Positions 11,582-62,497 of a stretch of 64,000 bases of DNA are shown one piece after another (position 1 is the first letter of the stretch; each line of letters opens with the position of its first letter). The DNA comes from an uncultured delta proteobacterium. Lineage in GTDB: Bacteria > Desulfobacterota > RBG-13-43-22. The stretch lies in NCBI GenBank assembly GCA_963711835.1, contig CAVQFQ010000005.1, forward strand, positions 192,001 to 256,000, read 5' to 3'. Below the pieces are notes generated by a model. The model was given only the letters and a program-made list of their open reading frames with translations, was not told where the DNA came from and did not search any database. A program made the translations under genes and the position numbers.

Positions 11582-11665
11582 AACGTGACGTTTTCATAGC
11601 AGTTTTTTTTGGCTTTGTCAATTTATTTGAATTTGTCCCAATGTTACGTGATTTTTAAGCTATTC

Positions 11666-11899
11666 ATTCTTAAAGGGCTTCAGGGGTCTTGATTTCAAGG
11701 TTGTCCGAAAGGGAATCCATAGCCCCAACCCGGCCCCACTTTCTAAGTTGGTTGGGAGCCGGGCATCACCCAAGACAATAAATCGCTTTGGTGTTGGCCT
11801 GTTTCTAAACCCCATTATAAACTTCCTGCCCGGGATCAGGCTGCCGGCATTTTGGCGGACAATCCTTGAAATCAAGACCCCTGAAACCCTTTTGAGAAT
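11666..11899 (+). repeat. Rod-like palindromic element, copy A
   Basis: Arms 11666-11707 and 11856-11899 are near-perfect inverted repeats; core shared with 22701-22929 and 59175-59387. Confidence 0.88.
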
Positions 11900-12022
11900 C
11901 ACCTAACTTTGGGACAATCCCATTTTTTTGATAAGGGAAGATCGGCTGGAATTGATGTTTTTCCGAAAGCTTGCTATGATGAGAACACATCCGGAAACAA
12001 TCTTTTGCGGAGGTGCTCGGGA

Positions 12023-21105: not shown

Positions 21106-22653
21106 ATGAAAAAACAGCCTAACTGTCTGGTTCTCTCCCTTATCATTGTATTAGTTTTTTTTAATATAACCTGGGCTGGGGAGGAGTTCCAGCTCCGGAT
21201 TCTTTATCTGAATGACTTCCATGGTTTTGCCGAACCCCAGCAAGCCCTGGGAAAGGAGGGATTGGCGGGCGGCATCGCTTCGCTGGCCGGGGAAGTTAAT
21301 CGCCTGCGCCAGGGCCAACCCACCCTCCTGCTGGCCGCCGGCGACATGATCCAGGGGAATCCCTGGGCCAACCTCTTTCAGGGCGAATCGACGATCGATA
21401 TAATGAATGCCATGGGGTTTACGGCCATGACTTTGGGAAACCATGAGTTTGACTTCGGGCAGGAAGTCCTTCAAAAACGGATCTCCCAAGCCCAATTTCC
21501 AATACTAACAGCCAACCTGAGTCCCTTCCCCGGGCTAAAACCTTATATAATAAAAAATATGGCCGGCTTCAAGATTGCCATTATAGGTCTGGTCACTGAA
21601 GATACCCCGGTGGCCACCCATCCCAAGAATGTTGAAGGGCTTCATTTTACCCCGGCCATCGAAACCACCCGGAAAATCCTCCAGGAATTGGGCGACACCC
21701 CGGATTTGATCCTGGTCCTGTCCCACCTCGGGCTGCCGGCGGATCGACGCCTGGCCCAGATGGTCAAGGGGATCCAGGTCATTGTCGGAGGCCATACCCA
21801 CACCCGGATTGAAAAACCTCTGCAGGTCAACGAGACCCTGATCGTCCAGGCCTGGGAACATGCCAAGGTGCTGGGAGTCCTCGATTTAACCCTGAAGGAT
21901 CGTGCCCTGACCCGGGCTCAGGGGAAGCTGATCCCCATTTCTCCCGACCCGGGAAAGACGACCCTCAGGTGACCGCCCTGGTTGATCACTATCGGAAGCA
22001 AGCCTCCCGAGTCCTGGATGAAGTCATCGGCCGGGCCGAGGTGGACCTGCAGGGAAAGGGATCCCGCCGCCGGGAAACCAATCTGGGAAATTTTTTAGCC
22101 GACATCCTGAGAAAAGAAGGCCAGGCGGATGTGGCCCTGATCAATGGCGGGGGAATTCGAGCCGATATCTCCCAAGGGCCGATTCGGATGAAGGACCTCT
22201 ATTCGGTTCTCCCCTTTCGCAATCACCTGGTGGTCATCAACCTTACCGGTAAAGAGCTCCAGGAAGTTTTAGAATATGGGCTTTCCGACTTAAGCGGGGA
22301 GGGCGGGCAATTCCCTCAGCTTTCGGGAATCCGGGTGACCTATGACCCGGCGGAGCCGGTCGGCCGGAGGGTCAAAACGGTTTGGATCAGGGAGCAACCC
22401 CTGGTCCCGGATACCCGCTATCAATTGGCCACCCTTGATTTTTTGCTGGCCGGCGGTGACGGATATTCCGTTTTTACAAAAATGGTCCGGGAGGATTCCG
22501 CTTATCCGGATTCTCAGAGAGTTGACCTCAAGCGCGGCCGTGTGGTCCTCTTCGATTCCGGAAGGGACCTGCGCGATATCGTCATTCAATCGACTTAGAG
22601 GACAGGAAAAGATCGCCCCGGCTCTGGAAGGTCGTCTACAACCTATAAAATAA
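21106..22653 (+). CDS. Secreted 5'-nucleotidase/UDP-sugar hydrolase family, frameshifts near 21960 and 22590
   Basis: Signal peptide, NDFHG, AGDMIQG, LGNHEFDFG, LSHLG, GGHTHT; C-domain ETNLGNFLAD, NGGGIRA, DFLLAGGDGY. Confidence 0.92.
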
Positions 22654-22700
22654 ATTAGTATCGTTCAAAAGTTGAGGCACTGGTGCATTATGGCCTGACT

Positions 22701-22929
22701 GGGGACCGGGGGTCTCGATTTCAAGGCTTGTCCAAAGGGTGATCCTTCCCGCCAATCCGGCCCAGATTTCTAAGGTTGGTTTAGAGCCGGGCATTCATCC
22801 AACCGAACAAACAGCTTCGGTGTAGGCCTACTTAAGGCATTATCGTCAACCTTCCAGTCCCGCTAAAAGCGGGATTTCAAGGTGAGGAGTTTATGGTGGA
22901 CAACCTTGAAATCGAGACCCCCGGTCCCC
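22701..22929 (+). repeat. Rod-like palindromic element, copy B
   Basis: GGGGACCGGGGGTCTCGATTTCAAGGCTTGTCCA (22701-22734) pairs with 22897-22929 except one bulged base; core homologous to copies A and C. Confidence 0.9.
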
Positions 22930-23003
22930 TTCCATCGGGTATCAGAACTATAATGCCCAAACTTTTGAACGATACCAATAAATTTCCGATTTGGAGGTAA
23001 CCC

Positions 23004-38789: not shown

Positions 38790-40324
38790 ATGAGCCTTCG
38801 TGACTTCACCGTTTATGATGTTATCTGCAGACAACGCCCAGATCTATCCCAAAAGGATGCCATAGTCTTTAAGGATGATCCGCCTGACCCACAGGCAGTT
38901 CAAGGAAAAGTGTGACCGTCTGGCGACCGGTCTACTGGCCGCAGGCATCCGGAAGGGTGACCGACTGGGAGTGGTCGCCCAGAATTGTGATGAATTCATG
39001 ATTCTTTACGGCGCAGCCTCCAAGATAGGCGCGATTGTGCTCCCGATAAACTGGCGCTTTCAGCAGGACGAGGTGGAATTTGTGCTCAATGATTGCACCC
39101 CAAGGTTGGTCTTTGCCGGCCCTGAATACCGGCCCATGGTGGGGGATATATCCAGCGGCTCACGTCCGTCGAAGGGTGCTATGCCATCGGCGGCGGGGAC
39201 GCGCCCGCCGGCTTCAGGGCTTTTGAGGAGCTCTTTACTCTGGCGGCGGCAACCAAGAGGAATGCGACCTGCCGGCCGAAACCGGATTTGTCATCATCCA
39301 CACGGCGGCGGGTAGCGGGCAGACCCGGGGCGCCCTCCTGAGCCAGTCCAATGTCGTTCATGCCAATCTGCAGCTCATGCTGGGTAACGATGGCTTGGGC
39401 CCGATGACTGCTTTATCTGTATCCTGCCTCTTTTCCACATAGCCGCCCTGTCCATGGCCATGGCCGTGATGCAGGCCGGCGGAAAGAACGTGATTGTGGA
39501 GCGTTTTGATCCGGAACTTATCTTAGATCTTATCCAGAGCGAAAGAGGCACGACCCTGTTCCATTTTGCCCCTATCCTCCAGATGCTTGCCGATAAATAC
39601 GAGGAAAAGGGCCGATCCCATGATCTTTCTTCTCTGCGTAATGTCGGAGGTCTTGACAGCCCTGACAACATCTTTCGATTCAAGGAGTTGGTACCCGAGG
39701 CGAGGTTCTCGACCGGGTATGCGCAGACAGAGGCCCTGCCTGTAACCGGAGGGCTCATGGAGGAAAGACTGGGGAGCGCCGGGAGACCTTCTCCTCTTGA
39801 CGAGGGTGGCCCTTTTCGACGATTACGACCAGGAAGTCCCGGTCGGGACGCCGGGCGAGATATGCGTCCGTTCCCCGGTGGTCTTCCTGGGTTATTGGGG
39901 TCTGGACGAAGAGACGGCCTATACCCTTCGAAACGGCTGGCACCATACCGGCGACATCGGCCGTTTTGATGAAGACGGCTACCTCTGGTACGTAAAGAGA
40001 AAGGCGGAGAAAGAGCTTATAAAGCCCGGGGGCGAGAATGTCTACCCGATAGAGGTGGAAAAGACGATTCTGACCCATGAGGCGGTTGCGGAGGTCAGTG
40101 TCATCGGCGTGCCTGATCAAAAGTGGGGCGAAGCCATAAAGGCCGTCTGCGTGCTTAGGCCCGGGAAGTCCCTGGAGGCCCGGGAACTGATTGATTTTGT
40201 GGCCGGTAAAATTGCCCGCTATAAGAAACCCCAATATGTGGTCTTTGTAGACTCCCTTCCCAAAACAGCCAATGGCGAAATTGACCGGGACCAGGTTAAA
40301 AAAGAGCAGGGAGGAAAGTACTAA
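38790..40324 (+). CDS. AMP-binding acyl-CoA synthetase, broken by several indels
   Basis: GIRKGDR, PINWRF, IIHTAA..GRP, ILPLFHI, YAQTE, GWHHTGDIG, IKPGGENVYP.EVE, LPKTANGEIDR. Confidence 0.85.
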
Positions 40325-40344
40325 CCAAAGATACCTGAAGAAAT

Positions 40345-40370
40345 GGTGTAGGGGGGTCCCCCCCTACACC
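40345..40370 (+). terminator. GC-rich hairpin after the transporter operon
   Basis: GGTGTAGGGGGG-TC-CCCCCCTACACC; only a weak U-tract. Confidence 0.55.
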
Positions 40371-40421
40371 TGATTTTGGGAAATTAGAGATAAATTCTCA
40401 GACTAAAGCGACTAACAACGG

Positions 40422-53119: not shown

Positions 53120-56100
53120 CTATTGAATGGTGGCCAGTTGAACCGAAACCAGCTTGGAGATGCCGGGTTGCTCCATGGTGACCCCGAACAGGGTATCGGC
53201 CATTTCCATTACCCGGCGATTATGGGTTATCAGAATAATTTGAGAATCTTTGACGATACCGTGAACCAGACCTTTGAATCGTTCCACATTGGCCTCATCC
53301 AGAAAGGCATCGATTTCATCCAAAAGGCAAAATGGACTGGGCTTAACTAAGTAAATGGAAAAAAGCAGGGCCAAGGCGGTTAAAGCCTTCTCCCCCCCGG
53401 AAAGGAGACTCATATTGGTCAGCCTTTTCCCCGGGGGATGGACTATTATTTCCACTCCCGATTCCAGAGGGTCATCCTCGTCGGTCAGGGAAAGTTTGGC
53501 GCTCCCCCCGGCGAACAGGATCGGAAAAACCTCCTCCATCTTCTCCTGAACGGACTTAAAGGTCCCCAGGAACAGGTCTTTGGAGGTGGAATTGATTTTA
53601 TGGATGGCCCGTTTCAGGGAGTCGATGGACTTCAACAGATCCTCTTCCTGGGATTTATAAAAATCGTGCCGTTCCTTAAAGGCGTTATATTCTTCAATGG
53701 CCGTCAGGTTCACTTCTCCGATCTGTTCCAATTTTTCCTTAAATTCCTGCCGCTTTTGTTTTAACGATTCGGAATCCTCTTCCCTCTGGCCGTGGGTTTC
53801 GACAATATCTGCTATGGATAAACCGGACCGCTCCAGGGCCAGTTCCTTAAGATGGTCGATCTTCAACACCCGCCGGCTGTTTTCGAGATGAAGTTCATTC
53901 TCAACCGCTTCCGCTTCGGCAACTTTTCCCCGGCTCTCCCTCAAGTCCCCTTCCAGTTCTTCTTTCCGGGCTACCGAATCTTCCCATTTCAGGTTGATTT
54001 CCTTTAAATACTCCTCCAGGCGGCTCACTTTTTCCCCCAGCCCCTGGACGACCCCCTGCCCGATTTGCAGGTTTTCTTTCAGGCCGGATTTGATCTCCTC
54101 GGCCCGGGTTATTTTTTCCAGGATCTTGCTTTGTCGGGTCCGTTTTTCCTCCAGAGCCTCCCGGAGCCGCTGCCATTCCTTGCCAATGTGTTCCCCTTTT
54201 TCTTTTAAGGCCGATAAAAAAGTCTGAGATTGGGTGAAGGCCTCCCTTTTCTGCTCCAGGGCCTCTTCCAGCCCTTTCAGGGTTGCTTCAAAACCCTGGA
54301 TCTCTCCTTTGAGCTCGTGAACGGACTGGTTTAACCGTTCTTCTTCCACAGCCAGGGTGCGTTCTTCGGAGGCGTCATCGGCTTCCAGGGAACGCATTTC
54401 ATCCTCCTCGATACCCAATAACTGGTAACGCTTCTCAAGGGGTTTGGCCTGCTCCTGATAGCCGAAGACCTGTTTTTCGAATTCGAAAAGGCGCTTTTCC
54501 ACCCCGGCCTTTTCCTCTTCCAAAGCCTGCCCTTGGAGGGTCAGGTCCTGAAGGACCGTTTCCAACTCGGCCAGTTCTTCCTTTTTAGAGGCTACCTTGC
54601 CTTGCTGCTCCTGAACCTTATTCTCCAGGCGGCGGATAACATTTTTCTGATAGAGGATCCCGCTTTCAAGGCTTCCCAGACTGCCTCCGGCAATGAACCC
54701 CCGCTGGTCGATCACATCCCCCTCCCGGGTAACCAGGGAAAACTCTCCGGGGCAATTCTCCCAAACCTTCAGGGCCTGGGTAAGATCGGCGACCAAAAAA
54801 TAATTTCCCAGGATGGCCTGTAGCCCTTCCTGGATATCTTCTCCGGCGGACACTTTGGATAACAGGGGTTCCAACCCCTTTTCTTCCCCTGGAAAACCCT
54901 GTTTCCCGGGCCGCTGCACCTGGCCCAGGGGAATAAAACCGGCCTTCCCCCGGTTGGTTTCCTTTAAATAGCGGATTCCCTCCAGGGCCTTTTCCGGATT
55001 TTTTATCAGGATGGCCTGCAAGGCTTCCCCTAAGGCCGCCTCCACGGCCAATTCATAGCCGGGCTCGGTCTCGATCCCTTCGGCCAGCACCATAAAAAAT
55101 TCATGGCTTGGTTCCGACCCGGGCGACCATTTTTCCTGAAGCAGGGTCCGGACCCCGGTCTGGTAGCTTTGGTAATTATCCCGGATTTCCTGAAGATTGT
55201 TTATCTGGGCCAGATCCTGTTGAAGGGTCTGTTCCAACAGACGGAGTTCATCCGCCAGCCCTTTTCTTAGTTCTTTCTTTTGGAATTTCTCCTGCTGGAT
55301 CCGGGAGAGGCTCTCTCCTAATTGTTGTAACGACTGCCGGACCTCGGAAGAAGCGGTTTCCGTCTCCCTACCCGAGGTCCGGAGCTGGTTCAGACGATCT
55401 TGAAGCTGAGCCTTTTCTTCCGCCTGGCGGAGGGTCCTCCGGTTACGATCTTCCCGAACCTTGACCAATCCGGAGCGCTGATTCCTGACTTTGGTCAGCT
55501 CGGTTAATTGGGTAACCAGGAGGTCTTTCAGTTTTTCATGGCTTTCGGCAGTGCGGCTGAGTGCTTCCTTGGCTTGGGCAACGGCCTGTTCCTGTTCCCG
55601 ATCTCTTTCCTGTTCTTTCGAAAACCTCTCGGAAAAAGAGGCTACTTCTTCCTCCAGGGATTTTTCCTCTCTGTTCTTCTCGAGGAGCCAATTTTCTATT
55701 TCCCTGGATTCTCTCTGGTGCTCCAGGTCTTCCCGTTCCAGATTACCGATCTCTTTGGCGTAGTTTTGAACCAGGTCTTCCTGCCGCTGCCATTCCGTTT
55801 TCTGCAGATAATACTGTTCCTGCTGCTCCTTAAGCTCCCGCTCCAGATCCAGGAGTTGCGACTGCAGGACCTGGCCATTTTTTTCCAGGGCCTGAACCTG
55901 CGTTTTGGCCTCTTCCACCCGGCCTTCCTGGTCCAAAAGGTGCCGGTCCTTGAGGACCTTTTCCTGTTCCAGTTCCTGATATTCCCGGGCCAGGAGGACC
56001 AATTCCACCTCCTTGGATTGCTTTCGAATCTCCTTAAAGCGTTCGGCCTTCTTGGCCTGGCGGTACAGAGAATTCATCTGCCGCCGCACCTCGGCAATGA

Positions 56101-59038: not shown

Positions 59039-59174
59039 AACCCTCTCAACGATCCGCTCTCAGCGCCGAACCTTCCGGCGGGTAAGGACCTGAATCTTCT
59101 CTTTCGAACTTTCCCCTGGTACCGTTCAAAAGGATCGGCATCCGATTAGGGTCTCAAAATAATTGTGACCAACA

Positions 59175-59387
59175 GGGACCGAGGGGTCTTCTTTTCTGGG
59201 TTGTCCACCTTCAAGCCCGAAGCTTCTTTGCCGGGCCAAATTCGGGATCTAATTCAAAGACAGGCCTACACTATGCCCGAAACGGACTTAGGTGAATGCC
59301 CTGCACCTAATCCACTTAGCCGACCGGGCCGGGATAGGGCGATGATTTACCCTTTGGACAACCCAGAAAAGAAGACCCCTCGGTCCC
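59175..59387 (-). repeat. Rod-like palindromic element, copy C (opposite orientation to A and B), between glyQ and glyS
   Basis: Perfect 33-bp inverted repeat 59175-59207 / 59355-59387; reverse-complement core aligns with A and B. Confidence 0.9.
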
Positions 59388-59434
59388 ACTAATGCAATCT
59401 TCTCGATTTCATCTTACGACTATGAGACCCTTAC

Positions 59435-62417: not shown

Positions 62418-62497
62418 GGTTAAATTGGAAAGTTAGAGATAAATTTTCAGATTGTTAACACATTAGGTGTTTGAAAATTTGTCAAAGCTAATTTTTC

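Follow-up and report, generated by a model that had tools for sequence, protein, structure and literature searches.

The window, a stretch of 64,000 nucleotides from the genome of an uncultured member of the Desulfobacterota, contains three copies of a rod-like element, A, B and C, together with a core-less element and an isolated end of a further type (Table 1). The three copies are real and intergenic and lie at the coordinates given in an earlier description made from the letters alone (the sequence-only reading). As that description held, the arms of each copy are complementary to themselves and differ from copy to copy, and the same ordered blocks are found inside all three. The boundaries it drew are those of an inner cassette only; the whole elements reach 25-65 bp past each arm, and the start assigned to copy A, position 11666, includes 9 bp of shell. 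Each rod of about 215 bp is contained within a non-autonomous element of 280-390 bp that bears its own ends. The folding z-scores of A, B and C are -8.0, -10.9 and -8.5, and none of 200 shuffles folded equally well.

Copy C is located between the glycyl-tRNA synthetase alpha and beta genes, and its hairpin would be transcribed as part of that operon. Eight open reading frames (ORFs) neighbouring the copies were scanned and belong to housekeeping families or to no family. In agreement with the statement that the window holds no cognate enzyme, the IS110, DDE_Tnp_1 and Y1 matches of the genome all lie outside it. Contigs of other samples neither span nor skip the site of copy B, there is no genome of the same genus for comparison, and no empty site was observed.

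Table 1. Features of the element family in the window
Feature	Position	Strand	Remarks
Copy A, left target duplication	11621..11628		7/8 identical to 11922-11929
Copy A, whole element	11629..11921	+	beta shell (terminal inverted repeat, 8-bp duplication), cassette inside
Copy A, inner cassette	11675..11889	+	two ~33-bp arms flanking a ~150-bp imperfectly palindromic core
Copy B, left target duplication	22649..22656		8/8 identical to 22977-22984
Copy B, whole element	22657..22976	+	alpha shell; ends match the intact ISH6-family insertion sequence L428
Copy B, inner cassette	22701..22929	+	229 bp
Mini-hairpin insert	22858..22874		in the core of B and of other 176-nt alpha cores
Core-less delta element	40321..40415	+	asymmetric ends, residual 26-bp palindrome; absent from the sequence-only reading
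Copy C, whole element	59149..59430		gamma shell (short terminal inverted repeat, degenerate TTAA site)
Copy C, inner cassette	59175..59387	-	minority orientation relative to the shell (3/17 gamma copies)
Isolated, degenerate delta end	62422..62452	-	

Copies in the genome and types of shell

A profile built from the three window copies detected 148 merged nhmmer loci at E < 0.05 (best E 4e-64) in the 3.9-Mb genome, which is 89% complete. This search had been proposed in the sequence-only reading, and its outcome, far above chance, establishes a family across the genome. The copy counts are slightly high, as contig C27 seemingly duplicates part of contig C17: the copies at G000:C17:356218 and C27:8481, and those at C17:360818 and C27:3853, are identical and have near-identical flanks. 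The best 122 loci were used to class the shells; 117 were anchored and classed, 31 as alpha, 45 as beta, 17 as gamma, 21 as delta and 3 as other.

Alpha and beta shells have terminal inverted repeats and 8-bp target duplications. Among copies in which both ends could be read, the duplication is exact in 9 of 23 for alpha and 17 of 37 for beta. In gamma, TTAA is present on both sides in 8 of 11 copies, either as a duplicated target or as part of the ends. Delta shells have two unlike ends with a common three-base core, CTA, and no target duplication was found in 12 copies. With their terminal inverted repeats, lack of coding capacity and many dispersed copies, alpha, beta and gamma have the properties of MITEs. 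The premise that the covarying arms are the ends bound by a transposase does not hold: as is usual for MITEs, the ends that stay constant are found outside the arms. In an independently made count of paired ends, 104 copies were long and 29 short. In the short copies the core has been removed, with junctions at differing micro-homologies close to the hairpin base, and these copies are read as products of palindrome deletion; for delta, the order may be the reverse.

In relatives the same core is surrounded by at least two further types of shell, and about seven types hold the cassette in this genome and the relatives taken together. Most of the 80 relatives' loci listed have a core of 160-167 nt between the anchors. 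A clearly shell-less cassette was found neither among these 80 nor among the 117 classed copies; a few have one decayed end. An exact scan for the core pattern yielded at least 80 loci in at least 11 assemblies, including that of Deltaproteobacteria bacterium RBG_13_43_22. According to BLAST, the element is present in 6 of 20 genomes of the host family, a family of uncultured Desulfobacterota, and in none of 20 genomes of other families; BLAST undercounts the spread within the family, as cores are also present in G014 and G020, and the range beyond the family is based on BLAST and the pattern scan. In a genome of another family (locus L150 of G054), a gamma-like pair of ends encloses an unrelated interior of about 60 bp; gamma shells therefore occur without the cassette outside the host family.

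Matching of the arms, inversion and exchange of the core

In the four shells, arm changes confined to a single copy are mirrored in both arms 25 times, a number that may be inflated by 5 of 104 rows anchored off-register, and one-sided 37 times; copies 5, 22, 29, 32, 47, 52 and 113 are clean examples of mirroring. The core occurs in both orientations in every shell, the numbers of majority and inverted copies with callable orientation being 25 and 3 for alpha, 33 and 11 for beta, 14 and 3 for gamma, and 12 and 9 for delta. Among the 11 inverted beta copies, an asymmetric marker base followed the core in 8 and remained at its place in the shell in 2, and in 1 both sides had become alike, which indicates that the crossover point is not fixed. 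Template switching corrects imperfect inverted repeats in proteobacteria and homologous recombination homogenises long ones, according to a passage of PMC5941160; arm homogenisation together with spacer inversion is stated in part of PMC8604942. Template switching or recombination leaves paired arm changes and an inverted spacer as its signature, and accounts for the covariation of the arms better than RNA structure does. It is therefore likely that the arms are kept matched by one of these processes acting between inverted repeats and not by selection on a folded RNA. In relatives, a palindromic insert of about 45 bp lies within cassette cores or arms (L094, L101, L139, L149; long-arm loci L124, L133, L096, L091); L101 has it in both arms, which is what homogenisation of the arms would predict.

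The cassette could also be taken for an inverton, in which a site-specific recombinase turns the segment over and thereby switches the genes beside it; the two orientations found in all four shells point that way, as do inverted flanks and an opposite-strand joint at the ends of the arms in other samples. Such a switch is scarcely credible in view of the variable position of the crossover, the arm sequences that differ between shells and the distribution of more than 100 copies over all gene contexts (70 co-directional, 25 divergent, 17 convergent, 3 inside genes and 2 at edges).

A tree of 152 cores requires 21 changes of shell label, compared with a minimum of 6 and a mean of 82.9 after shuffling. 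Seven alpha shells carry cores of the beta clade, gamma and delta cores are interleaved, and delta cores are the most spread. The tree is made of cores of 158-168 nt only, with relatives' labels assigned by motif (4 unassigned), and it is rooted at the midpoint, so that it does not give the order of events. By these comparisons, the cassette has changed shells repeatedly. The median identity to the nearest core is 0.957, with 6 of 79 at 0.99 or above, some of them assembly duplicates; judged by their divergence, the copies are moderately old. At G000:C17:14270-14440 a beta element is inserted in the T-run of a delta arm, and nesting of this kind is a possible route for the exchange of shells.

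The interior of the cassette

A multicopy structured RNA, as considered in the sequence-only reading, would have its pairing under selection. The strong folding favours this, as do 21 of the 36 pairs in a consensus fold of 28 diverse copies, which carry changes on both sides. All 21 are in the arms, however, and no compensatory change was found in the 6 interior pairs of that fold. In 66 cores less than 90% identical, thinned from the 152, the 40 best APC-corrected column pairs of a mutual-information analysis trace no helix, and variants in two interior stems break pairs and do not restore them. The cores invert freely and have no strand preference (37 sense and 33 antisense between co-directional genes, by crude gene calls), and Rfam at gathering scores gave no match in the window. 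Pieces of the element are found in contigs of two RNA-library runs of one study, which is evidence of presence and is not counted as transcription. An RNA maintained by selection on its pairing is thus very improbable; the rods form a layered MITE family and not a new RNA.

The covariation described for an apical stem is weak and equivocal. Its score of 0.156 exceeds that of 497 of 500 shuffles, but a slide of two columns still gives 0.141, and the stem is not a conserved covarying helix. In the 28 diverse copies 67% of the cells pair, and two of the seven pairs are broken in 19 and 22 of the 28 rows. At most 13 of 66 cores make six of the seven pairs, whatever register is tried; the register of B, as read from the alignment, differs from that of A and C.

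Within this genome, single-copy changes are less frequent in columns that are conserved among relatives than in the others (45 of 3780 and 58 of 2898 sites, or 0.012 and 0.020 per site; Fisher p = 0.009), and the contrast has the same direction in three of four core groups. This points to some constraint or bias on the core; selection, repair or base-composition bias could account for the lower rate. The arms and two interior stems have one common dyad axis, and both strands of the cassette fold about equally. One reverse frame of the core contains fewer stops (0.027 versus 0.039-0.058). A decayed gene is disfavoured by single-base indels that shift the frame between blocks and by a flat codon periodicity, and neither a parent ORF in the genome nor a Pfam match was found.

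Parents of the alpha, beta and gamma shells

An intact element of 1.63 kb (L428) carries an ISH6 transposase gene (483 bits, cut-off 240) between alpha-type ends that have 0 and 2 mismatches to the alpha motif in 17 positions; the partial element L431 is similar. ISH6 matches at E 1e-40 occur in 6 of 251 genomes of the phylum, and no ISH6 gene was found in this 89%-complete genome. The ISH6 family (p-MULT 2, Mutator-like DDE; NCBIfam NF041731) and its MITEs resemble the alpha shell in their AT-rich 8-bp duplications and in the ends, which in alpha and L428 are nearly identical. The family covers the alpha shell only, however, and the interior studied here is a foreign cassette common to unrelated shells. 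ISH6 makes 8-bp repeats, according to an entry in the supplement of PMC3942029, and the 8-bp duplication of beta fits ISH6; the beta end pair is absent from 8 ISH6 loci and from supplement file 3 of that paper. No parent of beta or gamma was found in any locus set searched, nor a parent of any shell in the genome at its 89% completeness.

Other transposases were tried as parents and rejected. DDE_Tnp_1 and IS1182 (30 of 167 and all 27 of 27 matching loci fetched), IS1595 (19 loci) and UPF0236 gave no match to beta or gamma. IS6 is present in none of 21 genomes, and 17 IS256 loci have only 12 bases in common with alpha, so that the idea of an IS256/IS6 parent was dropped. An IS5/IS1182 gene adjoining a gamma end had inserted into that end. 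The gamma shell has no match in plasmids. In viral contigs the alpha end was hit 16 times, never as a pair, and these hits were taken as chance; the long end pairs in L092 and L094 belong to separate neighbouring elements. One alpha copy contains a transposase gene (L024:307-2470; G000:C10, about 53696-55860), which lies in a 2.2-kb element with 15-bp terminal inverted repeats and with HTH and DDE_Tnp_1 ORFs in separate frames, the latter without an NCBIfam family. The element is inserted in the mini-hairpin of the alpha core and, having its own ends, is a secondary insertion and not the alpha parent.

Hairpin MITEs of bacteria include Correia/NEMIS, ERIC, RUP and bcr1, as listed in a section of PMC3733652. 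Like these, the present elements are non-coding, 100-400 bp long, dispersed, mostly intergenic, strongly folded and accompanied by shorter deletion forms. They differ in having two layers, with constant outer ends of several types around an invertible and exchangeable rod.

The delta parent

The parent of the delta shell was reached through a one-end scan of five relatives. It is a 1.85-kb element (L328) with both delta ends around a single ORF of 539 aa, whose product has 6,375 homologues among 7,999 candidates scored (5,945 clusters at 50% identity). No Pfam, NCBIfam or PDB match to the protein was found by sequence, and its Atlas clusters are hypothetical only. In delta-type metagenome loci (80 of 578 confirmed) the left end is present in 68 of 80 and the right end in 60 of the 67 with enough sequence; in L388 a right end is joined to a left end through one CTA. 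Neither core nor arm of the cassette was detected in 80 autonomous delta-type loci, apart from one marginal match (E 0.22). Distant relatives of the protein occur in five copies in G020 (26% identity; L334-L344) and in three in G016 (21%; L336, L340 and L342), with different flanks. Fixed ends, unrelated flanks and several copies per genome make the delta parent an insertion sequence; no copy of it was found in the present genome. The G016 group has different ends, which suggests subfamilies with other cores. In many delta-type parents (L353-L424) the left region is longer, about 440 bp, and seems to contain a conserved small ORF on the opposite strand.

A first model of the protein (pLDDT 64) gave the winged helix only and was replaced by a second, built from 63 sequences (pLDDT 86.7, pTM 0.74). 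Here the C-terminal winged helix (Z 11.2, rmsd 3.3, 100 aligned) is accompanied by an N-terminal part that resembles TBP (Z 9.1, rmsd 3.5, 176 aligned). The top Foldseek hit, an aromatase/cyclase (E 6.6e-4), was set aside for its poor superposition (rmsd 19). The match of the N-terminal part to Rep_trans 4CIJ is weak (prob 0.97, E 3.6e-3, TM 0.36, rank 3), and 4CIJ was outside the top 50 of two further structure searches, whose lists, for the protein modelled as a whole, were filled by the winged helix. Conserved residues are D20 (35/36), E253 (47/51), Y328 (59/63) and E338 (57/61); together with K330 and R336 they are conserved in 92-97% of the rows covering them. Their order, as distinct from a superposition, suggests equivalence to D46, D142, Y191 and E214 of RepDE.

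Rep_trans enzymes have a TBP fold, a catalytic tyrosine and three acidic residues, to which archaeal Rep-Arvir adds a MarR-like winged helix, as described in part of PMC13107129. The prediction for the delta protein follows this Rep-Arvir layout: a TBP-like catalytic domain, the conserved tyrosine with three acidic residues that are likewise conserved, and a MarR-like winged helix at the C terminus (Rep_trans representatives are RepSTK1, 4CIJ, and RepDE, 4CWE). Unlike these proteins, it is the only product of a chromosomal element with fixed ends, which occurs in several copies and has non-autonomous derivatives. Its motif is YxK, in contrast to the YxxK that appears in that part of PMC13107129, and it has no Rep_trans match by sequence in Pfam or PDB. 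On the basis of the model, the 539-aa protein would serve transposition as a tyrosine transesterase; its element, the delta parent, is probably an insertion sequence of the rolling-circle kind whose candidate enzyme is non-HUH.

Asymmetric ends, no target duplication and a short shared core are also found in the rolling-circle elements IS91/ISCR and in IS110 elements; the enzyme of IS91 is of the HUH type and that of IS110 of the DEDD type. The delta parent is like both in these features and in the right-end/left-end junction of L388, but its protein matches the library model of neither. As to IS110 bridge-RNA elements, the two IS110 loci of the genome have no ends or core in common with the element.

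The cassette as a mobile or functional unit

The recurrence of the cassette in unrelated shells would suit a unit that is itself able to insert, namely a non-autonomous partner of Y1 (TIRYT/RAYT-type HUH) enzymes that is read as a folded single strand and enters other small elements. The genome contains 12 Y1_Tnp matches (L025-L034; G000:C12, C17, C8, C5, C15, C10, C18, C19). The seven examined are genes of the TIRYT type (about 290-340 aa), enclosed by distinct G-run inverted repeats, and one of them is frameshifted. TIRYT ends of the family such as GGGGTCAGGTCT, followed by a T-run and TTGACA, resemble the arm (G-run, GTCTT, T-run, TTGTCC), and one end of L026 has 11 bases in common with a frequent start of the delta arm. 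The arm does not, however, fit the consensus GGGGWSAS given for TIRYT in parts of PMC3733652 and 10.1101/279083. Of about 210 Y1 matches in the family, 49 loci from relatives were searched with the arm and core profiles and none was hit; nor was a clearly shell-less cassette found among the 117 own and 80 listed loci. As Y1 genes are present in 21 of 21 family genomes, their co-occurrence with the cassette is uninformative. We consider a Y1 partnership unlikely. What the cassette has in common with TIRtrons/TIRYT and REPIN-RAYT systems is the G-run inverted repeats, in a host with many TIRYT genes; it differs in that its arms lack GGGGWSAS and were not found at the 49 Y1 loci searched, and the target duplications of the element come from other systems.

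The broader suggestion of mobilisation as a folded single strand is upheld, in altered form, insofar as the delta shell derives from an element with a predicted tyrosine enzyme of the rolling-circle type and the arms resemble TIRYT ends; it does not apply to A, B and C, which are not in delta shells, nor is it supported by any shell-less cassette.

The cassette might instead be a functional single-stranded DNA device that aids any shell, the rod priming the second strand or holding the ends together, and that arose in a delta shell. Single-strand origins are rod-like hairpins. The near-fixed core length and the conserved blocks in 152 cores would be consistent with such a function, as would the common dyad axis, the similar folding of both strands and the excess of long over short forms (104 versus 29). 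In the tree, moreover, delta cores are scattered most widely, and a single-stranded mode of action is predicted for the delta parent. A device of this kind is nevertheless quite unlikely. Core and arm are missing from the 80 autonomous delta-type loci (one marginal match aside), core-less shells exist, DDE shells should not need a cassette, interior variants break pairs rather than mend them, and the tree, rooted at the midpoint, does not reveal which shell came first.

Proposed course of events

We regard it as probable that the rod is a shared passenger cassette of about 215 bp in gene-less transposon shells of at least four types, in which the shells likely do the jumping and complementarity of the arms is likely maintained at the DNA level, through template switching or recombination, and not by selection on RNA. 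Alpha, and probably beta and gamma, would be moved by DDE transposases supplied in trans. Delta would be moved by the 539-aa protein, the tyrosine of which would nick at the CTA core, with one strand being transferred in a rolling-circle-like route. The arms would pair during replication, and a template switch would copy one arm onto the other and sometimes flip the core. Recombination across common arms would carry cores between shells, and slippage at the base of the hairpin would delete the core. The observations underlying this scheme are the shell ends, the target duplications, both orientations of the core, the core-less derivatives, and the match of the alpha ends to those of an ISH6 element and of the delta ends to those of the 1.85-kb element. 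The sequence-only reading was right in seeing non-autonomous mobile DNA, for which no named family was found, served by an enzyme located elsewhere.

Several findings argue against a mere passenger. Neutrality leaves unexplained why about seven types of shell keep the cassette, with near-constant length and fixed blocks. Conserved columns carry fewer single-copy changes (p = 0.009), and the apical stem scores above 497 of 500 shuffles. The parents of beta and gamma, a parent of any shell within the genome, and an empty site were not encountered. For the rolling-circle interpretation of delta, the weak Rep_trans match (E 3.6e-3, not the top hit) is a counterargument.

A further-reaching idea is advanced tentatively, and we are slightly more doubtful than confident about it. 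The delta shell may reveal an undescribed class of insertion sequence, with thousands of members and non-autonomous elements of its own, that combines a tyrosine enzyme of Rep_trans/Rep-Arvir fold and a winged helix with asymmetric ends sharing CTA and no target duplication. It would transpose by a non-HUH rolling-circle route, and the cassette would be a portable single-strand module born there and passed to DDE-type shells. The literature searched, which took in few subscription journals, contains no description of the delta-parent element or of the cassette.

Significance

The family is a clean example from nature of a trap for RNA discovery: a long stem covaries in a perfect-looking way, and homogenisation of the arms at the DNA level is the best explanation. 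One cassette exchanged among several types of transposon is an unusual layered design, and why unrelated shells keep it is unexplained. The delta parent gives a candidate function to more than 6,000 hypothetical proteins. If confirmed, it would bring the Rep_trans fold into the chemistries of transposition and would constitute a compact, duplication-free integration system with defined ends.
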